From a virus (Duplodnaviria > Heunggongvirae > Uroviricota > Caudoviricetes), in the IMG/VR virus record IMGVR_UViG_2923302340_000001: a stretch of DNA of 48,684 bases; one strand, written 5' to 3'. The notes under the pieces were generated by a model. It ran no database searches. It was not told the DNA's origin and saw only the letters and a list, made by a program, of their open reading frames with translations. The position numbers were made by a program, and so were the translations under genes. Of the stretch, positions 1 through 48,684 are shown piece by piece (within the stretch, counting starts at the first letter, position 1; each line of letters starts with the position of its first letter).

Positions 1-1435
1 CACAACAGCGCAGAAAAAAGGGAAGAATCCATTCGAAGCTGCAATGCATTCTGTCATGAAAATGACTAAGAACGGAGATCAGAAGTTACTTGGTGAGCTA
101 TTTGGCGATATGCAGGTTCAGAACTTTGTTCGTCCGATGATTCAAAACTGGAAGGAATACCAGAGAATCAAAGCAACATCTCTTGGAGCTGGAAGTGCTG
201 TTATTGACCGCGATTTTGCCAACATAACGAAAGATAATGCGGAGCGATTGAAACAATTACGTATTCAGGCTAGCAATGCATCATTAAGTTTTGGTCAGGC
301 CTTGCAACCTGCTTTGAATGCCGCGCTTAGTGTTTTGGTTCCGCTGATTACAAAAATTAGTGAATTTGTAGCTAACAACCCCAATTTTGTGTCTCAGATA
401 GTGATGGCGGCAGGTGCGTTTCTAACCATGAAAAGTGTGGTTATAGCGTGTAGGGTAGCTATGCTGGCTTTATCTGTAGCGACAAAGCTAACACCCTTCG
501 GGTGGATTCAGATGGCTATATCTGCGCTGGTTGCCGCAGGAATATTGCTCTATCAGAACTGGGATAAGATCAGAGATTATGCTGTCAGAGTTTGGCCTTC
601 TGTTAAGGAATATACAGTTAAATCGTTTGAGGCTATAAAAAACTTTATCTTAAACTTTGATCTCAATGGATGGATTATATCTATGTTTGGTAAAGCATGG
701 GATTATCTTTCCAACATAAACTGGAGTTCGGCAGGAGTAAGAATTTACAGTACATTAATTAGTGCTTTTAAATGGATGTCTCCGCTTCCGTTCTTAATTA
801 AAGCATTTAAACTTACAACAAATTACCTTTCTGGCATTAACTGGAGCGAAACAGGAAAGAAAATCATAGATACACTGGTGTCTGTTTTTATGCGTTTTTC
901 GCCAGTTGGACTATTTATAAGAGCATTCCAATCTGTAACGGCTTATTTATCTGGAATAAACTGGAGTGAGTCAGGTGCAAAAATAATTGAGACGTTAATC
1001 ACTGGGATAAAATCAAAAGCAAATGCTTTAATTAATGAAGTGAAAGGCGTTTTTTCTTCTGTACGTGAGTATTTACCGTTCTCTGACGCGAAAAAAGGTC
1101 CATTCTCACAGCTAACAAAGTCAGGTGGTGCAATAATGACTACTCTGGCATCAGGTGTTAGCAGGAATAACAGCTTACAGAATGCAATAGCAACCAAGTT
1201 CGGGCAATCAAATTTATCACCTCACGGGATATCTGCCGCCGGGACTTCTGGACCTCGCCAGAACGTTAACGCTGTGACTGGTGGAATAACCTATTCACCT
1301 GTAATCAATCTTCCGGCTGGTTCACCAAAGGAAACTGAGGCGGCAGCTAAAAGAGCATTAGATGCGGGATATTCTGATTTTGAGAAGAAATTGAGTGCTC
1401 ATATGTTCCAACAACGGAGATTAAGTTTTGGATGA
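1..1435 (+). CDS. tail tape-measure protein, C-terminal part (5' partial; continues in frame from 47327..48684 across the window boundary)
   Basis: Frame open from nt 2; hydrophobic segment and repeated ...YLSGINWSE(S/T)G... motifs typical of tape-measure C-termini; lies between tail chaperone and baseplate genes. Confidence 0.75.
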   Translation, partial: TTAQKKGKNPFEAAMHSVMKMTKNGDQKLLGELFGDMQVQNFVRPMIQNWKEYQRIKATSLGAGSAVIDRDFANITKDNAERLKQLRIQASNASLSFGQALQPALNAALSVLVPLITKISEFVANNPNFVSQIVMAAGAFLTMKSVVIACRVAMLALSVATKLTPFGWIQMAISALVAAGILLYQNWDKIRDYAVRVWPSVKEYTVKSFEAIKNFILNFDLNGWIISMFGKAWDYLSNINWSSAGVRIYSTLISAFKWMSPLPFLIKAFKLTTNYLSGINWSETGKKIIDTLVSVFMRFSPVGLFIRAFQSVTAYLSGINWSESGAKIIETLITGIKSKANALINEVKGVFSSVREYLPFSDAKKGPFSQLTKSGGAIMTTLASGVSRNNSLQNAIATKFGQSNLSPHGISAAGTSGPRQNVNAVTGGITYSPVINLPAGSPKETEAAAKRALDAGYSDFEKKLSAHMFQQRRLSFG

Positions 1436-4041: not shown

Positions 4042-5162
4042 CGTTGCCGCGTGGTGGTTTGCCAGATATTACTTTCGCAGATTCTAACCCGACTGATATA
4101 ACAACTCGTTCAATCAGGGCTTTTGAGAGTATAACAGGTGAAACATTAGCACCTGCTGATCCACGTAGATTATTCATCTTATCATTGTGTGAGATTATTA
4201 TACAGCAAAGAAAAGCTATCGATTTTTCTGCAAAACAAAACCTTCTTACATATGGTGAAGGTGAATATCTCGACCATATAGGCTATCTGACGGATACGCC
4301 TAGGCTGGAAGCTCAATCTGCCTTGACTACATTTGAGTTTAATCTGTCAACAAAATTATCGGGGATATATACAATACCTGCTGGCACTCAAGTTTCAACT
4401 GGAAATGGTGTTATTTTCCAAACAGATATTTTGTTGGAAATACCTGCTGGGAAAACAGTTGGTACAGTCTCAGGATATGCTGTTATACCTGGTTTATCTG
4501 GGAATGGCTTTTTACCAGGGCAAATAAATGAGTTGGTGACTCCGTTGCCGTATGTTTCCAGCGTAAGGAATGTAACAACATCTAATTCTGGTGCTGATAC
4601 GGAGTCAGATGATAATTATGCTGAAAGAATAAAACTGTCGCCGGAAAAACTGTCTACAGCAGGGCCGGAGGATTCTTATAAATATTGGACAAGAACAGCC
4701 AATCAGAATATAAAAGATGTGAATGTATATACACCATCGCCCGGAATTGTAGAAATCCGTTCTTTGTTAGAGAACGGAGATATACCTTCTGATGAACTAT
4801 TAGAGCAGATAAATAGCGTTCTCTCTGCAACTAATATTCGACCATTCACAGATAAAGTTCTTGTTAAGAAACCAGAGAGCATTGAATACGATATAATAAT
4901 TAAATACTGGATTAACTCATCGGACAAAAACAGAACAACTTTAATTCAAAGTGAGGTTGAGAAAGCTATTGATGAGTATAAACAATGGCAACGTTCGGTT
5001 ATGGGAAGAGATATAAATCCAGATGAAATTATTCAACGTTTAAAAAATGCTGGGGCTAAAAGATTAGAAATATCAAGTCCTGTTTTTACTGTGGTTGGAG
5101 AGACACAGGTCGCCAGAGAGAGAAATATAAATTGCCAGTATGCGGGGTTAGAGGATGGCTGA
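4038..5162 (+). CDS. baseplate protein J-like
   Basis: 374 aa; 4-nt overlaps with neighbours; conserved position before gpI-like and fibre genes. Confidence 0.65.
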   Translation: MTLPRGGLPDITFADSNPTDITTRSIRAFESITGETLAPADPRRLFILSLCEIIIQQRKAIDFSAKQNLLTYGEGEYLDHIGYLTDTPRLEAQSALTTFEFNLSTKLSGIYTIPAGTQVSTGNGVIFQTDILLEIPAGKTVGTVSGYAVIPGLSGNGFLPGQINELVTPLPYVSSVRNVTTSNSGADTESDDNYAERIKLSPEKLSTAGPEDSYKYWTRTANQNIKDVNVYTPSPGIVEIRSLLENGDIPSDELLEQINSVLSATNIRPFTDKVLVKKPESIEYDIIIKYWINSSDKNRTTLIQSEVEKAIDEYKQWQRSVMGRDINPDEIIQRLKNAGAKRLEISSPVFTVVGETQVARERNINCQYAGLEDG

Positions 5163-5736
5163 TATCTTTAATGTTAGCTTGTTGGATGTTTTACCTCCTA
5201 ACTTAGCTAGCGATCCCAACGTGATAGCTATGTCGAAAGCTATCGATGATGAACTACAAGCAATTAACAATTTAATATATAAGACAGAAATATATAGCGT
5301 TGTTGATAACCTGGATTCAGTTGTCCTCGATCATTTAGCTTGGCAATGGAATGCTGATACATGGAGGGATAGTTGGCCTGTATCGTTAAAGCGTTCTGTT
5401 TTCAAATCAATAATACGAACAAAGCGAATAAAGGGTACAAGGGCAGCGGTTGAAGATGTAGTAAATAGCTTGGGGGGAGAGGTAAACATAATAGAATGGT
5501 TTGAAACATCACCACCTGGCGAACCATATACAGCCTCAATTGTTGCTTCGATTAACTCTTTTGATGGTGCCGTTCCTTCGAAAGAGATGTTGGAAGATAC
5601 GTTAAGAAGTATCAAGAGCGCAAAGTCGGCAAGAACATTATTTACATTTTCGCAAGCAGCCAATGTTTCTGGTGGTGTCGGTATTGTTGGTGCTTGTCAG
5701 CCTGTGTCTTATATACGATTAATTGGCGAGTGTTAA
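5155..5736 (+). CDS. tail protein I-like (P2 gpI family)
   Basis: 193 aa; N-terminus ...LLDVLPPNLASDPNVIAMSKAIDDEL... resembles gpI family. Confidence 0.55.
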   Translation: MADIFNVSLLDVLPPNLASDPNVIAMSKAIDDELQAINNLIYKTEIYSVVDNLDSVVLDHLAWQWNADTWRDSWPVSLKRSVFKSIIRTKRIKGTRAAVEDVVNSLGGEVNIIEWFETSPPGEPYTASIVASINSFDGAVPSKEMLEDTLRSIKSAKSARTLFTFSQAANVSGGVGIVGACQPVSYIRLIGEC

Positions 5737-5766
5737 TTCGCAATTTGTTTATTCAAGGAATTAAGC

Positions 5767-7656
5767 GTGAGTAAATTATTATTTACGATGACTGACGCCG
5801 GGCGTCAGGAGTTGGTTAATGCCAACAAAACAGGAACAAATAAAGTTGAGATTGTTTCTGTTGGTTTAGGTGGTAGATATTATGTCACGTCAACCTCACA
5901 AACAAATATAACAAACGAAATAAAACGACTTACCACAATAGGTGGCAAAGTTGTTTCCCCTGATACAATTCATGTAACGGCGAAGGATGATAGTAAAGAT
6001 GAGTATGTTGTCCATACAATAGGATTGTATACAAATAAGGGAACGTTGTTTGCTGTATACTCGCAAGAACAAGCAATAATAAATAAAGCATCATCTACTA
6101 TTGCTTTAATATCAAGTGACATAGCAATCAAGACTCTTGATACTAAAAATATTATATTTGGTGATATTGAGTTTATTAATCCTCCCGCGACCGAAACTGT
6201 TGTTGGGGTTGCAAGATTTGCTAATGAACAAGAAATTGATGCAGGTACAGATGATTCCCTTGCTGTTTCAGCAAAGCGGCTTAAGCAAGCCATTGTGAAA
6301 CATGAGCAATCACGTAATCATCCTGATGCAACTTTAACCTCAAAAGGCTTTGTTCAACTTAGCAGCGCCACCAATAGCACGTCTGAAACGCTTGCTGCGA
6401 CGCCTAAGGCTGTTAAGGCAGCATATGACCTGGCTAACGCTAAATACACCGCACAGGACGCTACCACTGCGCGGAAAGGGATTGTTCAGCTCAGTAGTGC
6501 CACCAATAGCACGTCTGAAAAGCTAGCAGCAACACCAAAGGCTGTTAAGGAAGCGTATGATCTTGCGGCCGGAAAGGCTCCTTCCAATCACACGCATTCG
6601 TGGGATCAGATTACAAATGTGCCTGTAGCTTCACTGACAGTAAGAGGAATCACTCAGCTTAGTAGCGCCACCAATAGCACGTCTGAAAAGCTAGCAGCAA
6701 CACCAAAGGCTGTTAAGGAAGCGTATGATCTTGCGGCCGGAAAGGCTCCTTCCAATCACACGCATTCGTGGGATCAGATTACAAATGTGCCTGTAGCTTC
6801 ACTGACAGTAAGAGGAATCACTCAGCTTAGTAGCGCCACCAACAGCACGTCTGAAACTCTGGCTGCGACACCGAAAGCTGTTAAGGTGGTAATGGATGAA
6901 ACAAAAAAGAAAGCCCCCCTCAACAGTCCGGCTCTGACTGGAACGCCAACAACGCCAACAGCACCAAATGGGACTAATAATACTCAGATCGCAAGCACAG
7001 CTTTCGTTATGGCTGCGATTTCCGCACTTGTAGACTCGTCACCTGACGCACTGAATACGCTGAACGAGCTGGCCGCCGCGCTTGGTAATGATCCAAATTT
7101 TGCAACCACCATGACTAACGCGCTTGCGGGTAAGCAACCGAAGGATGCCACCCTGACGGCGCTGGCAGGACTTGCTACAGCAGCAGATAAACTCCCTTAT
7201 TTTACAGGGGCAGATCGTGCCGCGTTAACCGCACTGACAAGTGTTGGACGTGCCATTCTTAGTAAGCCCAGCACACAGGGGGTTCTTGATTACCTTGGTT
7301 TACGAGAAGCGGCAAAACGGGATGTAGGGACAGGAGCAAATCAGATACCTGATATGAGTTTATTCGCGTCAATTAATACCGTAACGGCTGCTGCGCAAAA
7401 ATTTCCGTCTGGATTAATTTTACAGTGTGGCCAGTTGAATGGTGCCCCGAATGTATCTTCAACATACGGGATGAGGTTCCCGATGACGTTCTCAAGAGTC
7501 ATTGCTGTCGTAGTTACATTGAACGTTACTGGCGCGGCAGGGCAGCCGACTGTATCGGCGACAAATGTCCAGAACACTGGATTTGATATTACAGTGTCGC
7601 CCGGTTCAGGATATGGTTCATCTGCTGATGCGTATTACATTGCAATGGGATATTAA
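5767..7656 (+). CDS. tail fibre protein (constant N-terminal part plus currently expressed C-terminal cassette)
   Basis: GTG start; 629 aa; repeated ...[26 protein letters not shown]... fibre repeats; hix-like crossover site inside the coding region at 7283..7308. Confidence 0.8.
6487..6822 (+). repeat. near-perfect tandem duplication (2 x 168 bp) inside tail-fibre gene
   Basis: 6487..6654 and 6655..6822 differ at 2 positions; flanked by diverged copies of the same 56-codon unit. Confidence 0.9.
7283..7308 (+). other. candidate recombinase crossover site (hix/gix-like) inside fibre gene
   Basis: TTCTTGATTACC TT GGTTTACGAGAA: 26 bp with imperfect dyad, close to Hin hixL consensus as recalled. 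Confidence 0.5.
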
Positions 7657-7660
7657 CGAA

Positions 7661-8080
7661 ATGTCATATTTTTATTCTGCATCGACAAACGGATTTTATT
7701 CGACTGAATTTCACGGCACCAATATTCCTGATGATGCAGTGGAAATCTCGGAATCAGAGTGGAAAACACTGATTAATTCACAGAGTGTCACAAAAATGAT
7801 TACCTGTGGTGAGGACGGTCACCCTGTCATTGTTGACCGTCCTTCTCCAACACCAGAACAATTAGCCTTAATAAATGATGAAAAGAAATCTGCACTGATA
7901 GCAGAAGCAACGAATGTAATAGCGCCGCTTCAGGATGCGGTTGATTTAGGTATGGCAACAAATGATGAAACGAAACTGTTACTGGCATGGAAAAAATATC
8001 GCGTGCTATTGATGCGTATTAATACTTCAACAGCACTCGATATTGAATGGCCTACGCCTCCGGCAGTTCAGGCCAGATGA
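7661..8080 (+). CDS. tail fibre assembly chaperone
   Basis: ATG 5 nt after fibre stop; C-terminus ...[28 protein letters not shown] typical of fibre assembly proteins (track start 7565 overlaps fibre gene). Confidence 0.7.
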
Positions 8081-8654
8081 CATCCGGCGCTGTGCTGGTA
8101 TCTGTTGCCGTCACCGCGTCAATGTAATCCAGCACAGCGTTAAGGCGGGTTGTTTCTGCCTGCGTCAGCTTTCGCCCAGCCTGTAATTTCAGTTGAATCA
8201 GACTAATGGAAGCCATTGCAGCATCAATCAGTGACTGGCGCTGTGCTTCTGCCGCTTCTACTGCGGCACCGTGTTGTGCCTCAACATCCGTCACCCATTT
8301 CTCACCATCCCATTTATCGTATGGCGTTAACGGGGCGATAGTGGTTGTATTTTCAGGATAGTCGCCCGGTGCAGTTATTTCTTTGGCGTCACCCGTTTCG
8401 GTGTTATAGACGATTTCACCACGATGGTCTGGCACATATTCCCATGAATTTAAATCCACAGAACGGCAGATTGCATAACCAGCCTTATGTATGCCGGGGG
8501 CATCTAAACAAGAATATGCCGGAATACCAACACCTACCGCAAGATATTCAGTTGATGCGGAAATATATTCCTTTGTCTCACTGTCATAGTTGTAAACGAT
8601 GATGTTTCCTTCCTGTACGGCAATAAGTTCATTATTCAATATCGCGCTATTCAT
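8052..8654 (-). CDS. tail fibre assembly chaperone, alternative cassette
   Basis: 200 aa; C-terminus ...[24 protein letters not shown]; convergent with 7661..8080. Confidence 0.7.
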
Positions 8655-9104
8655 TATGCAGCTCTCACAATATAGTTAAATGCAATATTTCTCGGACGGG
8701 TTTCACGCCCACCAGGAATTTGAAAAGCATTAGCGGTTGTAGATCCGCCTTCCTGATTAATTCCTGTTGTATAAATACCACTCACACCATTTTGCAATGC
8801 AAATACTGTTGCGGTTCCAGGCCCACCACCGGGCCCAAAATACTTAAGTTCGAACTTTTTAATATCATCACTCTGAATATTCAATAAAGCACGTCCTGTA
8901 TCAATGCCGCGTCCATCATCCCAGCCACGAATAAACTCACCGCGTAAATCAGGAAGTTTTCCTGACGGGTATGCTTTGGCAAGAGTTGGATATTTCACCT
9001 TATCAAAGGCAGCACCGTTGCATTTCAGCCAGCCCGTTGGAGGGGTTGCGGAGGGCCACGGAACAGGTACACCAACAGGCAGCGCCGAACCTTCCCCAAA
9101 CCAA
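8654..9104 (-). CDS. promoterless alternative tail-fibre C-terminal cassette B
   Basis: Shares a 232-bp direct repeat (8881..9112 vs 9367..9599) including the crossover-like site with cassette A; no ATG; motif KYPTLAKAYPSGKLPDLRGEFIRGWDDGRGID; ends ...RPRNIAFNYIVRAA. Confidence 0.45.
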
Positions 9105-9116
9105 CGTTTTTATGCA
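9091..9116 (-). other. candidate crossover site (cassette B)
   Basis: Plus strand CTTCCCCAAACC AA CGTTTTTATGCA; minus strand carries the TTGGTTT core in inverted orientation relative to 7283..7308; overlaps stop of cassette A. Confidence 0.4.
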
Positions 9117-9640
9117 GCCCTCACGATAAAGTTAAATGCAATATTTCGTGGACGGGTTTCACTCCCGCCAGTATTACCGATACTCCCTCGTGAATGAAGT
9201 GTCGGTGATGGAATCAGAGTTCCTCCGGCATCGGCAGCATCAAGCCCCCGGCCTTGCGTATATGCTCTTCTGAAGATTGTCGCCAGTTCCCATTCCTCTT
9301 TTGAATCATACCCATCGTTGGCAACAACAATATGGCGGTGTTTTTCCAGCATCCCAGTCTGAATGCTCAATAAAGCACGTCCTGCATCAATACCACGCCC
9401 GTCATCCCAGCCACGAATAAACTCACCGCGTAAATCAGGAAGTTTTCCTGACGGGTATGCTTTGGCAAGAGTTGGATATTTCACCTTATCAAAGGCAGCA
9501 CCGTTGCATTTCAGCCAGCCCGTTGGAGGGGTTGCGGAGGGCCACGGAACAGGTACACCAACAGGCAGCGCCGAACCTTCCCCCAAACCAACGTTTTTAA
9601 CTTCGTGAACTGAGCTATCTAATAGCATTTTCACTAACAT
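9110..9640 (-). CDS. alternative tail-fibre C-terminal cassette A
   Basis: 176-aa ORF; codons downstream of the crossover-like site are in the frame needed for fusion to the fibre constant part (...DYL | GLGEGSALPVGVPVPW...). Confidence 0.5.
   Translation of the reverse strand: MLVKMLLDSSVHEVKNVGLGEGSALPVGVPVPWPSATPPTGWLKCNGAAFDKVKYPTLAKAYPSGKLPDLRGEFIRGWDDGRGIDAGRALLSIQTGMLEKHRHIVVANDGYDSKEEWELATIFRRAYTQGRGLDAADAGGTLIPSPTLHSRGSIGNTGGSETRPRNIAFNFIVRAA
9578..9603 (-). other. candidate crossover site (cassette A)
   Basis: Plus strand TTCCCCCAAACC AA CGTTTTTAACTT; minus strand AAGTTAAAAACG TT GGTTTGGGGGAA; 45 bp from invertase start. Confidence 0.45.
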
Positions 9641-9647
9641 AAACGGG

Positions 9648-10217
9648 ATGCTTTTTATGCAAATTGGCTATATTCGCGTATCAACAAATGACCAGAATAC
9701 AGATTTACAACGTAATGCTCTGAACTGTGCAGGATGTGAGCTGATTTTTGAGGATAAAATCAGTGGAACGAAGTCAGCCAGACCGGGATTGAAAAAACTG
9801 CTCAGAACGTTATCAGAAGGAGACACGCTGGTTGTCTGGAAGCTGGACAGGTTGGGTAGAAGCATGAAACACCTGATCACTCTTATTGAGGAACTACGGG
9901 AAAAAGGTGTTAATTTCCGTAGTCTGACGGACAGCATTGATACATCAACCCCTATGGGGCGTTTCTTTTTTCACGTCATGGGGGCTTTAGCAGAAATGGA
10001 GCGTGAATTAATTGTTGAGAGAACATTGGCTGGACTGGCAGCAGCTCGCGCACAGGGCCGCATTGGTGGGCGCCGCCCGAAGCTGACAAAAGAACAGCAT
10101 GAGCAAATAGCAAGGCTGATTAAAAACGGTCACGAGAGGAAACAACTGGCGATCATTTACGACATTGGTATATCAACGATTTATCGCTATCACCCTGTAG
10201 GAAGTGATTCAGCTTAA
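9648..10217 (+). CDS. DNA invertase, Hin/Gin/Cin/Pin-type serine recombinase
   Basis: N-terminus (M)QIGYIRVSTNDQNTDLQRNAL, ...TLVVWKLDRLGRSMKHL..., ...GRFFFHVMGALAEMERELIVERT..., C-terminal HTH; alternative ATG at 9657. Confidence 0.9.
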   Translation: MLFMQIGYIRVSTNDQNTDLQRNALNCAGCELIFEDKISGTKSARPGLKKLLRTLSEGDTLVVWKLDRLGRSMKHLITLIEELREKGVNFRSLTDSIDTSTPMGRFFFHVMGALAEMERELIVERTLAGLAAARAQGRIGGRRPKLTKEQHEQIARLIKNGHERKQLAIIYDIGISTIYRYHPVGSDSA

Positions 10218-10420
10218 ACAGGAAGATAGTTTTTCCTGCGATGATGCCCTATCTACGCTTTACCGCAGGTTTCCGGCTGGGAATCATTGACTGGAGTTAG
10301 GCCAGTAGTATGATGCTCGCAACACGAGATCCGATTTAGATCCTTTTACTGGTGGATTATCGTTCGATTAGCGAGAGACTTCGTGCATGACCGAAAGTGT
10401 TGTGGTAGAGTTCTCTTAAA

Positions 10421-10435
10421 ACCACGTAACGTGGT
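10421..10435. promoter_or_regulatory. ACCAC-N5-GTGGT palindrome (same motif as cI-cro operators) upstream of replicon
   Basis: ACCACGTAACGTGGT, perfect 5-bp arms with 5-bp spacer. Confidence 0.35.
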
Positions 10436-10475
10436 TACGATTGTGGGTGTCTGGTTGGAAACTGACCAGATATGG

Positions 10476-10600
10476 AAACAAAAAGCCCGCAGATAAATCT
10501 GCGGGCTTCTTGCGACATCCACGGAAAACCAACAAAACAATCCATGGGCGCCTCGACAACTCCCATTATACGTTGGTTTTCCGTGGACGCAAGAGCGAAC
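10476..10600 (-). ncRNA. candidate antisense RNA (CopA-like) opposite the repA leader
   Basis: Minus-strand intrinsic terminator (GCCCGCAG-ATAAAT-CTGCGGGC then T-run, 10476..10506) and 15-bp perfect stem 10519..10533 / 10572..10586 directly upstream of repA start. Confidence 0.3.
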
Positions 10601-10602
10601 AT

Positions 10603-11451
10603 ATGGATAGACCAATGCCGTCTCTACGTTCAGCTTACGTTTGTAATTTGTCGCCGGAGTTCCAGCCTCCAAAGCACCATACGCACAAGCTGCCGCTGGT
10701 GTTATCTGATGCTTTACAGCGCATTTATGGGCGTGATCTTACGTGTGAGGTTGCGTTCTACGTTAATCAACCGTCAGAGCGGAAGCGCCGGATAAACGAG
10801 CATCGTCGTCGGGCGATTAATGCTGTGATTGCTGCGATTTTGCACCATGTAAACATCATTTCTAAGCGGGTTCTGGCCAGTGCTGAGGCGTTGGCTGATT
10901 TTTGCGGCCTGTCTACCGTATCCGAAGCTGGGAACAAATCTATAACGCGCTGTACAAGGGCGTTGTCGCAACTGAAAGCGTTAGGTTTTATTGATTATGA
11001 ACGTCGCTGGGATCGGGTGAATAAACAGTATTGGCCAGCGAAAATAGAGATTCGTGATCAACTGCTGGAAACAGTTGGTATTACTGAACAAGCATGGAGA
11101 CGTGCGGTTAGCCAGAAACTTAATTACTTCAATGCGAAGAATAGCGAACGGCTTAAAAAAGCGATAACGGAGGCTGATTATAAGCGTATTGTTATTCAGG
11201 AGCAGATGGAGAATGTATGGCGTCAGAGGAAGACGGCCAGAGAGATAAAGGCAAAACAGAAAGCAGCGGAGAGAGCTGCGCGTCTTGTTCGGGAAAAGGG
11301 AGAGGCCGAACTTCGTCATCAAATCACTAGAGAGGTTAGCCAGGAATTTGCTGATGGCATGTATCCAGGTGCTGACCTTGCATATTTACGCTCCCTCGTT
11401 GATCAGCGTTATAACAGGCTAAGAAAGACCTGGACATCACTCCAACATTAA
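10603..11451 (+). CDS. repA: replication initiator RepA, IncFII RepA1-like
   Basis: ...RRRAINAVIAAILHH...CGLSTVSEAGNKSITRCTRALSQLKALGFIDYER... resembles RepA1 of IncFII plasmids (recollection); track start 10441 is an in-frame upstream extension; ATG at 10603 or 10615. Confidence 0.7.
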   Translation: MDRPMPSLRSAYVCNLSPEFQPPKHHTHKLPLVLSDALQRIYGRDLTCEVAFYVNQPSERKRRINEHRRRAINAVIAAILHHVNIISKRVLASAEALADFCGLSTVSEAGNKSITRCTRALSQLKALGFIDYERRWDRVNKQYWPAKIEIRDQLLETVGITEQAWRRAVSQKLNYFNAKNSERLKKAITEADYKRIVIQEQMENVWRQRKTAREIKAKQKAAERAARLVREKGEAELRHQITREVSQEFADGMYPGADLAYLRSLVDQRYNRLRKTWTSLQH

Positions 11452-11486
11452 CCCACCTGAATGATGAATCCGGTTTTACCGGAGGA

Positions 11487-11700
11487 TTATCCACGTCGCA
11501 ATAAAATAGCTGTTCAAAAAACAAGCTAAATTAATTTTCTCTAAACCTGAACACAGCGAAAATATCGTCTTTACAGGCATCAACTAATCAAGTTATCCAC
11601 AGTTTTGATATGTATATGCAAATGGTTTTTTATAATAGATGCACTAAACAAATAAATGCAAAATCACTTTCTTTTATTAAAACTTTCTTTATTTAACTTA
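11487..11700. other. putative plasmid origin (oriR-like)
   Basis: DnaA-box-like TTATCCACG (11487..11495) and perfect TTATCCACA (11593..11601) followed by ~100 bp AT-rich DNA, directly downstream of repA. Confidence 0.4.
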
Positions 11701-11703
11701 CGC

Positions 11704-11895
11704 AGGCTTTGCCTGTGAATATGTTCGCCCTTGCAGCGAGCTAAAGCTCGCGCCGGTTCGAGTCGCTACGCTCAAATATACCTCCTCCGGCAGCTGCCGG
11801 AGGCATGGAGTAGCCTGATCATCCTTTTCGAAACGGCGCGTTTCGAACTATACAAAATCAATTTATATAAGGCCGAAATAAGGCCTACGGCCGGG
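11704..11895. repeat. cluster of GC-rich palindromes/hairpins
   Basis: GCGAGC-TAAA-GCTCGC (11736..11751), perfect 20-bp palindrome CCTCCGGCAGCTGCCGGAGG (11784..11803), TTCGAAAC-GGCGC-GTTTCGAA (11827..11847), GGCC..GGCC (11871..11885). Confidence 0.6.
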
Positions 11896-12082
11896 CTTTG
11901 CAGGAGGAAGGGGCGAGCATTATCAATAAACGTCGATAAATACGCACACAGTAGCCATCAGAACGCGATAAAACGTAAGAAACATCATTTCCTATTAGAC
12001 ATAGAAAACTTGTCTTATACGCAATGTAGTAAATTTCTATTGCCACATAGGAAAAGATTTCCTATCATCGTAGATATAATAA

Positions 12083-12382
12083 ATGGAGATGGTTATGGAT
12101 AAAGATACTGTTTTAAAAATGTTGAATCCGGCTTGTTTAAAAAAAGCGGATGAATGGGAATCTCCTACATGTGGAGAAGTTCGGGCAGTCATTGGCCTGA
12201 CCGGAATGAGCGGCTCGCAGTTGGCCAAAAAACTTGGCTTAAAAGATAGTCGCAATGTTCGCAACTGGCAGATGTTAAAGGAGTCCACATCCAGATCCAG
12301 CATTCCGTATGCAGCCTGGGCGCTGCTGTGTTACTTCGCTGGATTAGGGTTAATCTTCATTGATAACAAAACAGATGTTTGA
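12083..12382 (+). CDS. hypothetical protein with HTH-like segment and hydrophobic C-terminus
   Basis: 99 aa; ...GLTGMSGSQLAKKLGL... HTH-like; C-terminal ...AAWALLCYFAGLGLIF. Confidence 0.3.
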   Translation: MEMVMDKDTVLKMLNPACLKKADEWESPTCGEVRAVIGLTGMSGSQLAKKLGLKDSRNVRNWQMLKESTSRSSIPYAAWALLCYFAGLGLIFIDNKTDV

Positions 12383-12669
12383 AACATGCAAATATGAGGT
12401 TTGTTATGGAACTTGTACGCAAAACACGCAAAGAGTTCTTGGACCTGTATCGCATGGGAGCTTTCACTTGTGTTGTGGCTACCCAGGACGAAGTGACAAA
12501 AAGCTGGCGGCTTTTTGCTCTCAATAAAAAAGGGATTGCCGTTTTCATTGAAAAAGCCCGTGGTGGTATCCGCGAATGGGCTGGATTGAATTATGTGGCT
12601 GATTTTTGCGCAGCTATGGGGATTCGGCGCTGGGAAGTCCATATGCCAGGAGTAAAGTCACAAAAATAG
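12379..12669 (+). CDS. hypothetical protein
   Basis: TTG start in track; ATG alternatives at 12394 and 12406 (GAGG 7 nt upstream of 12406). Confidence 0.3.
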   Translation: MKHANMRFVMELVRKTRKEFLDLYRMGAFTCVVATQDEVTKSWRLFALNKKGIAVFIEKARGGIREWAGLNYVADFCAAMGIRRWEVHMPGVKSQK

Positions 12670-12859
12670 GGCTTTCGCGTCGAAAATGAGGCGAAACTGA
12701 AAACGAGATTTTATTAACAAATAAGCAACATAAAAAACGGTGGAAAACGCCCAGGAAAACATGATCTTTTGAGCGGATTTTTTAGATCCGACAATGAACG
12801 GTGATCCGATGGTGCCGATAACGTCCATTATGTTAAATAGCCCCGTTTTTCTTGAAATT

Positions 12860-12903
12860 ATAACCTACGGGTTATATAGTTAGTGATATAAACTACAGGT
12901 TAT
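12860..12903. promoter_or_regulatory. palindromic operator-like sites upstream of toxin-antitoxin operon
   Basis: ATAACC-TACG-GGTTAT (12860..12875) and degenerate repeat TATAAAC..GGTTATA just before the toxin start. Confidence 0.3.
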
Positions 12904-12913
12904 AGGATTGAGC

Positions 12914-13261
12914 ATGTGGACGGTACTTTTTAGCCAGCGATTTGACGACTGGCTAAATGAGCAAGAAGACGCTCTTCAGGAAAAGGTTTTGGCTGATTTG
13001 AAAAAGCTACAGGTTTACGGACCTGAGTTACCCAGGCCATATGCCGATACCGTAAAAGGTTCTCGGTACAAAAATATGAAAGAGCTTCGCGTTCAGTTTT
13101 CTGGCCGTCCGATAAGAGCCTTTTATGCGTTCGATCCGATTCGCCGGGCCATCGTTCTTTGTGCAGGAGACAAAAGTAACGATAAGCGGTTTTATGAAAA
13201 ACTGGTGCGTATAGCTGAGGATGAGTTTGCAGCACATCTGAACACACTGGAGAGCAAGTAA
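12914..13261 (+). CDS. type II toxin, RelE/HigB-like (addiction-module killer)
   Basis: ...GSRYKNMKELRVQFSGRPIRAFYAFDPIRRAIVLCAGDK...; toxin-first order; stop overlaps antitoxin ATG (TAATG). Confidence 0.55.
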   Translation: MWTVLFSQRFDDWLNEQEDALQEKVLADLKKLQVYGPELPRPYADTVKGSRYKNMKELRVQFSGRPIRAFYAFDPIRRAIVLCAGDKSNDKRFYEKLVRIAEDEFAAHLNTLESK

Positions 13262-13560
13262 TGAGAACATTAGATGAGGTGATTGCCAGCCGTTCACCTG
13301 AAAGCCAGGCGCGAATTAAAGAAATGGCAGATGAGATGATTCTTGAGGTCGGCTTGCAGATGATGCGTGAAGAACTCCAGTTATCACAAAAACAGGTTGC
13401 TGAGGCGATGGGTATAAGCCAGCCAGCAGTAACAAAGCTGGAGCAGCGCGGAAATGATTTAAAGCTGGCGACATTAAAGCGTTACGTTGAAGCTATGGGA
13501 GGCAAATTAAGCCTGGATGTTGAGCTTCCTACAGGAAAGCGAGTAGCGTTCCATGTCTAA
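13261..13560 (+). CDS. HigA-like HTH antitoxin (XRE family)
   Basis: 99 aa; HTH ...SQKQVAEAMGISQPAVTKLE... Confidence 0.55.
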   Translation: MRTLDEVIASRSPESQARIKEMADEMILEVGLQMMREELQLSQKQVAEAMGISQPAVTKLEQRGNDLKLATLKRYVEAMGGKLSLDVELPTGKRVAFHV

Positions 13561-13568
13561 CATAATGT

Positions 13569-13587
13569 AAGGCCCCATTGGGGCCTT
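13569..13587. terminator. bidirectional intrinsic terminator
   Basis: AAGGCCCC-ATT-GGGGCCTT between convergent genes. Confidence 0.5.
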
Positions 13588-13593
13588 ACTTAT

Positions 13594-13878
13594 TTACTTA
13601 CCATTTTTGCGGTTTTTTTCGGACTTCATAAGCTGGCTAACGCGCCCTGGTGTGATATTTAACATGCGGCTTACTTCAGCTTGTGATCCTACTTCCTCTA
13701 CTAGCGATGCAACATAGCGAGATTTTCCTGAGGAGGTTAATCCATTATATGTTGCTCGTACGACTTTTCCCTGAGCTTCTCTCATATCAACTAATGCCTG
13801 AGCAACCTGCTCAAAACCTTTAATTGTTACTTCTGTTAATGCTCGAATAGCATCAATTTCAGATTTTTGTTTAGCCAT
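13594..13878 (-). CDS. small HTH DNA-binding protein
   Basis: ATG at 13878 (MAKQKSEIDA...); ...SQAEVSRMLNITPGRVSQLM... HTH. Confidence 0.4.
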   Translation of the reverse strand: MAKQKSEIDAIRALTEVTIKGFEQVAQALVDMREAQGKVVRATYNGLTSSGKSRYVASLVEEVGSQAEVSRMLNITPGRVSQLMKSEKNRKNGK

Positions 13879-46890: not shown

Positions 46891-47172
46891 ATGGAAACCG
46901 TTAAATTAAGTAAAGAATATCGTTTTGAAGACTTTGAGCCGGTGACTGAACTCAACCTTGATTTAGACAACCTAAAAGGCAGTGATATTTTAGAGGTATC
47001 GGACTTACTGCAATCTCAAGGGCATGTTTCAGTTCAAACATCACTTGATAATAAAGTCCATGCAGCCTTGGCTGCTCGCTGTATTGGTCGTCCAATAGAG
47101 TATCTGAATGGATTACCAGCGAAAGACTTTGTTAAAGTTTGTCAAAAGGTACAGAATTTTTTGCTCTCGTAG
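46891..47172 (+). CDS. tail assembly chaperone (gpE/G-like)
   Basis: 93 aa between tube and tape measure; slippery T TTT TTG near 3' end. Confidence 0.55.
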   Translation: METVKLSKEYRFEDFEPVTELNLDLDNLKGSDILEVSDLLQSQGHVSVQTSLDNKVHAALAARCIGRPIEYLNGLPAKDFVKVCQKVQNFLLS

Positions 47173-47321
47173 GTTTTGATGAGCAAAAACCTATTGATAA
47201 GCAAATAATGAGGGCCGCGAGTTCTCTATCTCAATCATCTCAATCAACACCTATATCCTACTGGCTTTCGCTTCGGTTGAGGCGAATCGTCGCATGGATT
47301 GACGTGTTTAATGAGGATTAA
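46891..47321 (+). CDS. tail assembly chaperone, predicted -1 frameshift fusion product
   Basis: Heptamer T TTT TTG at 47157..47163; the -1 frame stays open to 47321, ending 6 nt before tape-measure ATG. Confidence 0.45.
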
Positions 47322-47326
47322 TACTA

Positions 47327-48684
47327 ATGGCCAGCAATAAGAACTTTAAGCTGGCTTTTGAAATTGGCGGCAAAGTTGCCGCCTCTCTCCCCAAAAGTTT
47401 TACTACAGCTAATCAGGCTGTTGCTAAATTAAATGCCGAGCTTGCTGGATTAACGAAAGAACATGGGGAAATTCAAAAGCTACAATCTGTAAAAGTAAAG
47501 GTTGGACAGACTGCCCTCGAATATCATAAAGCTGCCGCTCGCGTTGAAGAGTTACAGAAGCAAATAAAAAACACGGCCAATCCAACCAGAGCGATGCTTC
47601 GTGACTTTGAGAAGGCAAAAACACATTCATCGAATTTACGAGCATCACTACGTTCTCAGCGTGAAGAACTGGCCGCTTTAAAGTCTGCCTATCAGGGAGC
47701 TGATACATCTGCCAGAGCTTTGGCCTCAAGAGAGAAAGAGCTTAAAGCCAGCATTGATCGTAATCGTGAGGCTCAGGCCCGTAGCGTTGAGCAGGTTAAC
47801 CGCTACAGAACGGCTTTGGCTTTAGCCAGAGCAAATGTTCAGCAAGTGAAAAAACAGCAGGAGGAACTTAACCGGGCATTAGAAAAACAACGTATTGATA
47901 AAATTAACAGCTATAAAAATGCGTTGGCTGAAGCACGGAAAAATGTTCTTGCAGTAAAACGTGCTCAGGAGGAGTTAAACCGCGCGTTGGAAAGGCAGCG
48001 TGAATTGAAGCGAGAGCATCTTGGTGAGGCAAAGAGTCAACTTGTAAGGACAGGATTACAAACTGGTGCTGTAGCGGCTGGTGCATTTGCTGCTGCTTAT
48101 AATGCAGCAAATTTTAATCGTGAAAACAAAATGATTGGTCTTACGGCAGATATGAAGCCGGAGGAAGTTCAGGCGATGGGGCAAGCGATGCTTGTTACCG
48201 GGGCGGCTACCAACCAGTTTGCATCTGATATTCAGGCCGCTCAGGGTTTTCTTGTCGCTGCTGGGCAGGATTATAAAGAGGCTCAGGCGAATCTACTAAC
48301 TATTGGGCGAACAGCTACAGCTACTGGCTCTGATATCCTCGATGTCTCGAAAGCATCATTTACATTAAGTGACTCATTGAAGATTGATCCATCTCAAATG
48401 AAGTCTGCAATGGGGATTCTGGTTCAGGCAGGGAAAGAGGGAAACTTTGAATTTAAAGATATGGCCAAAAATCTTCCTGTGCTTGGTGCTCAGTTCCAGG
48501 CATTAAAAATGGGAGGTAAAGAAGCCGCCGCGACGATGGGGGCAGCTTTGCAGATAGCTCGCAAAGGTGCTGCAACTTCGGATGAGGCTGCTAATAATAT
48601 GAACAACTTTTTGGCGAAAATACTTTCCCCTGAAACACTAAAAAAAGCAAAGAAAAATTTCGGTGTAGATTTATATAAAATTGT
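47327..48684 (+). CDS. tail tape-measure protein, N-terminal part (3' partial; continues at nt 1)
   Basis: ATG 47327; coiled-coil-rich N-terminus and Ala/Gly-rich region; last codon GT- completed by nt 1 (c) giving an in-frame join with 2..1435. Confidence 0.8.
   Translation, partial: MASNKNFKLAFEIGGKVAASLPKSFTTANQAVAKLNAELAGLTKEHGEIQKLQSVKVKVGQTALEYHKAAARVEELQKQIKNTANPTRAMLRDFEKAKTHSSNLRASLRSQREELAALKSAYQGADTSARALASREKELKASIDRNREAQARSVEQVNRYRTALALARANVQQVKKQQEELNRALEKQRIDKINSYKNALAEARKNVLAVKRAQEELNRALERQRELKREHLGEAKSQLVRTGLQTGAVAAGAFAAAYNAANFNRENKMIGLTADMKPEEVQAMGQAMLVTGAATNQFASDIQAAQGFLVAAGQDYKEAQANLLTIGRTATATGSDILDVSKASFTLSDSLKIDPSQMKSAMGILVQAGKEGNFEFKDMAKNLPVLGAQFQALKMGGKEAAATMGAALQIARKGAATSDEAANNMNNFLAKILSPETLKKAKKNFGVDLYKI

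Follow-up and report, generated by a model that had tools for sequence, protein, structure and literature searches.

Why should an alternative tail fibre tip, with its own codons intact, lie one nucleotide out of frame with its own crossover site? The question is raised by an invertible fibre locus in the complete 48,684-bp Escherichia coli plasmid CP028194.1 (GCA_003030245.1), which is the whole stretch of DNA that we analysed and which is called the window below. Two alternative tips are arranged there as cassettes A and B, each with a crossover site that carries a short run of cytosines. By direct reading the run is CCCCC in site A (9580-9584) and CCCC in site B (9094-9097; G4 on the coding strand). 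We consider that the four-base run (C4) is a one-base loss private to this record and not a designed feature.

Plasmid CP028194.1 is a member of a very common family of phage-plasmids of 47-50 kb, which carry an IncFII-type RepA, ParA/ParB, a P2-like baseplate with contractile tail, and head genes. Relatives with about 97% identity were found in E. coli, E. albertii, E. fergusonii and Klebsiella, and the three 'Yersinia phages' vB_YpM_39, vB_YpM_41 and vB_YpM_44 are likewise relatives. The origin of the record splits the tape-measure gene (window 1-1435 and 47000-48684), and therefore ORF scans of the linear window miss this gene; its C-terminal part lies at 2-1435, and the protein of the relatives has 930 aa. 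In the region 5' of repA (10603-11451) we identified a hairpin (10479-10512) and a perfect 16-nt inverted repeat (10518-10533 / 10572-10587), with an A/C run at about 10536 in the loop of the repeat, the length of which varies among relatives. The hairpin and inverted repeat at 10479-10587 may be a replication-control element. A gene pair encoding a Gp49/HigB-like toxin and an HTH antitoxin (12908-13560) adjoins the replication region and is kept in the relatives.

The tail fibre gene (5767-7656, plus strand) is a 629-aa ORF with Pfam Phage_fiber_2 repeats and a Gp53-like_C domain. Its constant part Sc (5767-7296) and the currently expressed variable tip Sv (7297-7656) meet at the core of crossover site F. 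The Sv tip is followed by the gene of its tail fibre assembly chaperone (7613-8080, plus strand; 155 aa; Pfam Caudo_TAP, E = 2.6e-30). The full 629-aa protein was found by exact look-up in the protein collection from this record only. The tandem units of 132/168 nt at 6343-6902 correspond to the Phage_fiber_2 repeats, and in a sister contig (L079, 1290-2879) the fibre has 529 aa, 100 aa shorter; the difference in length is due either to true polymorphism in repeat number or to repeats that collapsed in the short-read assembly.

On the minus strand there is a second chaperone gene, tfa' (8052-8654; Caudo_TAP, E = 3.3e-32), oriented like cassettes A and B, with a start codon that overlaps the stop of cassette B in TAATG. 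The identical 200-aa tfa' protein occurs in five further assemblies. Cassette B (8654-9094, minus strand) encodes an alternative tip with a Collar domain, which reads EGSALPVG...SDDIKKFELKYF...IVRAA-stop. Its codons (EGSALPVGVPVPW...IVRAA-stop) are internally intact, and they are one base out of frame relative to the crossover site of the cassette itself. In other E. coli elements the same tip is expressed as an in-frame fusion ...LGLGEGSALPVG... (P0025). Cassette A (9110-9640, minus strand) is also a Collar-domain tip and is annotated as a 176-aa ORF with ATG at 9640; the codons that run from GAA (9580) to the stop (9110-9112) are in frame with site A.

Beside the segment lies the gene of a serine DNA invertase of the Din family (Min/Cin/Gin/Pin/Hin; 9657-10217, plus strand), with Pfam Resolvase (E = 1.1e-51) and HTH_7 (E = 9.5e-13) domains. 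It is 97% identical to its counterpart in a P1-like plasmid with three tandem cassettes. Its best matches among solved structures are two PDB chains named 'DNA-invertase', 4m6f and 3uj3 (E of about 1e-90), which we take to be Mu Gin. A Fis-dependent recombinational enhancer (sis), which in such systems usually sits in the 5' part of the invertase gene, is likely present in cis, because the invertase gene is so similar to its P1-like homologues.

A scan with half-sites gave three crossover sites. Site F (7283-7308, minus strand; TTCTTGATTACC TT GGTTTACGAGAA, core TT at 7295-7296) has 0 mismatches, lies in the fibre ORF between DYLGL and RE, and is inverted relative to the other two. Site A (9578-9603; TTCCCCCAAACC AA CGTTTTTAACTT, core AA at 9590-9591) also has 0 mismatches and adjoins the invertase gene. 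The internal site B (9091-9116; (C)TTCCCCAAACC AA CGTTTTTATGCA, core AA at 9103-9104) has 2 mismatches at outer positions; its right half holds the TAA stop of cassette A, and its left half is one base short, so that the outer TTC is displaced. All three sites fit the 26-bp consensus given for Mu, P1, e14, p15B and S. boydii (PMC4134206, Table 3). The half-site GGTTTGGGGGAA, which is that of site A, is also found in the Phi2 site of E. coli EC958 (...AACGTT GGTTTGGGGGAA) and was shown to recombine in that prophage (PMC4134206, Table 3).

Site B works as a crossover site; the evidence was seen in a sister plasmid and not in this isolate. A metagenome scaffold from such a plasmid (L081, 1660-1724) carries the F x B recombinant junction: in the hybrid GCCGCTTCTCGTAAACC-AA-CGTTTTTATGCAGCCC the left half comes from F and the right half from B, with the join at the core, as F x B inversion is expected to produce. 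A second scaffold of the same sample (L009) is identical to window 13640-9098 and breaks off exactly at ...AACGTTGGTTT, which is where the inverted isomer branches from the parental one. Another sister contig (L082) terminates at window 7295, within the core of site F. The contig ends at crossover branch points, together with the F/B hybrid, indicate that mixed inversion isomers exist in natural samples, and the human-associated metagenome ERZ28616196 is among the sources of this evidence. The picture drawn in the preliminary description, with cassettes A and B each having a crossover site that can fuse it to the constant fibre part, is right, and the F x B junction in L081 is independent evidence that site B is used for inversion in a sister plasmid.

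These features place the locus among known systems. A small serine recombinase (Resolvase catalytic domain plus C-terminal HTH; such enzymes have about 185-195 aa) stands beside the segment, with inverted 26-bp sites that have matching cores, as in Din-family switches. There are three sites for three tips (Sv, A and B), and the same tandem cassettes are present in two further sequences (L007 and L001) and in many IMG/VR contigs, as in the Min type. The locus is a three-site Min/Cin/Gin-type serine-invertase switch, which is a known kind of system.

The Min multiple-inversion system of p15B was reportedly studied by Sandmeier et al. in 1990-1994. Like Min of p15B and of P1/p15B-like IncY plasmids, the present locus has a serine invertase beside the segment and more than two 26-bp crossover sites. 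Like the p15B/P1-like regions, it has tandem Collar cassettes in which the preceding stop lies in the right half of the site (as in L007 and L001), and tips fused in frame as ...GLGEGS..., in this record for F x A. It differs from them in its host, which is not a P1-like element but an IncFII-RepA phage-plasmid of 48.7 kb whose baseplate and tail module are P2-like, in the Sv tip, which is of the SfII/SfV Gp53-like_C type, and in having one internal site that is one base short. In addition, it has three crossover sites, whereas p15B has six. Min is the Din-family invertase of the p15B multiple-inversion system according to Iida et al. (1990), as cited in PMC6906374. The two-site switches Cin/P1 C segment, Gin/Mu G, Pin/e14 P and EC958 Phi1/Phi2/Phi4 (PMC4134206) share with our locus the 26-bp sites of 12-bp half-sites and 2-bp core, the position of the sites at the constant/variable fibre junction and the mirror-image tip-plus-chaperone modules. 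Unlike these two-tip switches, our locus has a second, nested site, which leads to a third tip that shares its chaperone gene with cassette B.

Through this switch Sc, which ends at site F, can be joined to one of three tips: Sv, cassette A through site A, or cassette B through site B. Strands are exchanged at the central TT/AA dinucleotide, and the C tract is situated between this core and the cassette codons. From this geometry we infer that the tract invariably travels with cassette B, so that site-specific recombination cannot repair the gap. A GLGEGS... fusion needs a tract of five, and it is four in this record.

The gap itself is clear. The preliminary description had reported five cytosines in copy A and four in copy B, with the copies otherwise identical near the site, and direct reading bears this out: copies 8916-9112 (197 nt) and 9402-9599 (198 nt) are identical except for the one-base gap, and both tracts are followed by AAACCAACGTTT (9098-9109 and 9585-9596). 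The repeat length of 232 bp given there was approximate only, as repeat search aligned copy B (8869-9111) with 9355-9597 over 243 nt at 94% identity, around the exact core of 197/198 nt. Read on the minus strand, site A gives GGT TTG GGG GAA GGT TCG (GLGEGS), in frame with the constant part (...DYLGL), while site B reads GGT TTG GGG AAG GTT CGG, which continues as GLGKVRRCLLVYLFRGPPQPLQRAG-stop. Minus-strand translation also agrees with the earlier reading of the fusion at site B as GLGKVRRCLLVYLFRGPPQPLQRAG-stop and with the statement that the cassette B codons are in another frame; these codons are otherwise intact. The translation means that F x A fusion is in frame (DYLGL-GEGSALPVG...) and F x B fusion in this record gives GLGKVRR... 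and a stop, whereas the F x B junction with C5, as in sister contig L080, is in frame. With C4, the TAA of cassette A and the ORF of cassette B share a frame (GCA TAA AAA CGT TGG TTT GGG GAA; 9080-9112, minus strand).

Because of the missing base, the deposited annotation treats cassette B as a separate 'phage tail protein' of 142 aa that starts with CTG at 9082 (AVS50197.1), and this product was found in a single contig among about 15 billion proteins. Exact look-up of the 114-aa ORF of cassette B with a GTG start gave no record. Six constructed fusions (Sc of the 629-aa or 529-aa fibre joined to A, in-frame B or truncated B) were likewise absent from the protein collection.

For a single indel no chance statistic is applicable, and the significance comes from comparison with homologues. 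The most informative sequence is L080 (DAAZHX010000130.1, GCA_012305205.1), an independent short-read contig that spans the same junction of the cassette A stop, site B and cassette B. Aligned to window 9400-7303, it is identical at 2098 of 2098 positions and has one extra G in the tract (C5), and its gene product is in frame and starts MHKNVGLGEGSALPVG... (P0026). As L080 is otherwise identical and carries C5, comparison with homologues leaves C4 private to the present record.

Sister contigs together cover about 8.9 kb (4752-13640), without further difference from the window outside the fibre tandem repeats. Besides L080 they comprise contigs of a human-associated metagenome, of two Logan runs and of a further TPA assembly; these contigs are 100% identical outside the tandem repeats and break within the A/B repeat, so they are uninformative on the tract. 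A 336-aa accessory ORF, looked up to see whether GCA_012305205.1 holds this plasmid over its whole length, was not on record, and the look-up of baseplate V protein for more of sister contig ERR2232747_11 returned only other members of the common family.

We scanned for the G-run with up to two additional bases and counted those homologous sites at which EGSxLPxG follows. A five-base run was present at 277 sites (143 in IMG/VR, 130 in metagenomes and 4 in species-representative genomes), and a four-base run at two sites only, both in IMG/VR (contigs L056 and L067); a six-base run in true cassette context was not found in the IMG/VR, metagenome and genome sites. L056 (900-1470) and L067 (1040-2620) have several further homopolymer frameshifts in adjacent cassettes, and are thus assemblies rich in errors or else cassette arrays in decay. 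About 2% of complete homologous cassettes in de-duplicated public contigs (4 of about 200) are broken by internal lesions. The junction-specific pattern had no match in the scan of metagenome contigs. A search of complete E. coli RefSeq genomes, PLSDB plasmids and GenBank phages gave none that contains the A+B tandem at a coverage of at least 80%.

The tandem order of a cassette, a stop inside the next site, and the next cassette is a common one, present in P1-like plasmids as well as in many contigs of IMG/VR. The five bases between GGTTT and AAGG in those tandems are GGGGG, AGGAG, GGGAG or AGGGG; the run length is always five and always gives GLGEGS. Many functional homologous sites interrupt the run (TTTAGGAGAAGG, TTTGGGAGAAGG, TTTAGGGGAAGG), which means that the length is conserved and the homopolymer is not. 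The P1-like plasmid NZ_LR130557.1 (L007, 2700-4300) has three Collar cassettes in tandem, each provided with a crossover site, and two of the three are nearly identical; RefSeq labels the middle cassette as a pseudogene 'missing N-terminus', although it is simply a silent cassette.

What then produced the private base loss? Among the three readings first proposed for it, sequencing error and a decaying or mutated cassette both stay viable, and slippage-based phase variation is not supported. On balance we incline to a consensus error of the deposited assembly in this repeated, invertible stretch, because the lineage is near-clonal over about 8.9 kb and a lone difference in homopolymer length is typical of such error. 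The discrepancy is confined to homopolymer length and is contradicted by the independent assembly L080. In addition, the tract sits in a 197-bp exact repeat, 5 nt from the inversion breakpoint, so that mixed isomers and repeats would make consensus calling least reliable just there. That invertible tail-fibre regions are prone to assembly discrepancies is documented: in EC958, one such region of 2.8 kb accounted for 2 substitutions and 20 indels between the 454 and the PacBio assembly (PMC4134206, Table 2).

Several points speak against such an artefact. The record is not error-prone in general: it has zero indels relative to two relatives of 97-99% identity over about 23 kb of structural genes, and the non-triplet indels elsewhere relative to the same two are intergenic or at ORF edges. 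The tract is 15 nt from the repeat edge, and uniquely anchored reads would be expected for polishing. Furthermore, a silent cassette of a plasmid-prophage is under no selection, and a real deletion in it would persist. Only two assemblies cross the exact junction, and they are divided between C4 and C5. A literature search on the accession and its neighbours, made for the sequencing platform, found CP028192 cited only as a BLAST subject.

It is possible, though we hold it less probable than a consensus error, that C4 is a genuine recent one-base deletion made by replication slippage in the G5/C5 run, and that cassette B is a null allele. The assembly is otherwise clean; as deposited, the orientation leaves cassette B silent, and no selection acts on tail genes while the element is carried as a plasmid. 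The broken cassettes in public contigs (about 2%) show that disabled silent cassettes occur or are commonly reported, but these are equally indistinguishable from sequencing errors. The sister plasmid identity, with a lone indel and zero substitutions over about 8.9 kb, makes such an event a priori rare, and the remainder of cassette B is intact, without sign of progressive decay.

If the deletion were real, the F x B fibre would end 23 out-of-frame codons beyond the junction GLG, and virions of this isomer would have no receptor-binding tip and presumably would not adsorb. The effect on host range would be local and small, as it concerns one of three fibre isomers. The displaced conserved outer GAA of the half-site might weaken invertase binding. 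Repair could come by gene conversion, or by a RecA-mediated deletion that uses the 197 bp shared identically with cassette A. A stronger form of this reading, which we regard as very improbable, takes C4 as a real, heritable and reversible OFF state, with B as an archival cassette and with inversion, homologous recombination and frame-shifting jointly setting the host range. Cassette B could then be re-activated by conversion or deletion against the C5-bearing cassette A, or by low-level -1 slippage on U_UUG_GGG.

Even more improbable is the proposal that the C tract is a phase-variable contingency homopolymer, in which frequent C4/C5 slippage would toggle cassette B as a second layer over inversion. 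The homopolymer difference does toggle the reading frame, as at the contingency loci of Neisseria and Haemophilus, and the four-base state also occurs in two other, non-identical contigs (L056 and L067). But those two carry other frameshifts, functional homologues interrupt the run, and no six-base variant was found in the site scan. Known contingency tracts usually have 7-8 nt or more, and a run of 4-5 nt is far below them. Length polymorphism was absent from the 130 metagenome and 4 genome sites. The earlier suggestion of a slippage-prone tract that adds phase variation is thus not supported, with five bases at 130/130 metagenome, 143/145 IMG/VR and 4/4 genome sites. Unlike the Neisseria and Haemophilus loci, our locus has a short run of 4-5 nt whose homopolymer is not conserved and which is without public length polymorphism, and it does not qualify as a homopolymer contingency locus.

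We find it hardly credible, and the least so of these readings, that C4 is compensated in translation by a -1 slip on U_UUG_GGG or by read-through of the cassette A TAA. The heptamer formally fits X_XXY_YYZ, and a -1 slip there would restore exactly ...GLGEGS; read-through with C4 would yield an A-B tandem tip, and the frame relations for it are present in the same string of codons extended by GGT (GCA TAA AAA CGT TGG TTT GGG GAA GGT). However, the shared frame of A and B follows directly from the canonical +1 offset minus one base, and UAA-A is an efficient terminator. U_UUG_GGG is not known to be an efficient slippery site. Downstream of the slip site, the fold of a 104-nt stretch is no better than that of shuffled sequences (z = -0.34), and the identical downstream sequence follows the in-frame site A. 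The arrangement is unconserved: the run has five bases at 277 sites and four at 2, and in the sister plasmid the tract is C5. Programmed frameshifting was rejected, the 104-nt fold giving no stimulatory structure and the arrangement being without conservation. Mutation induced by the recombinase at the crossover, as for Cin, was set aside as well, the tract lying 5-9 nt from the core, whereas the localized conversion by Cin described by Iida and Hiestand-Nauer in 1986 is said to affect the 2-bp core.

C4 is therefore an ordinary discrepancy of one base, private to this record, in a system of a known kind. It matters mainly as a caveat for annotation: homopolymer differences within repeated, invertible phage regions should be checked against the reads before biology is built on them. 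As a by-product, public contigs give direct evidence of an active three-site Min-like switch in a widespread family of 48-kb E. coli phage-plasmids.
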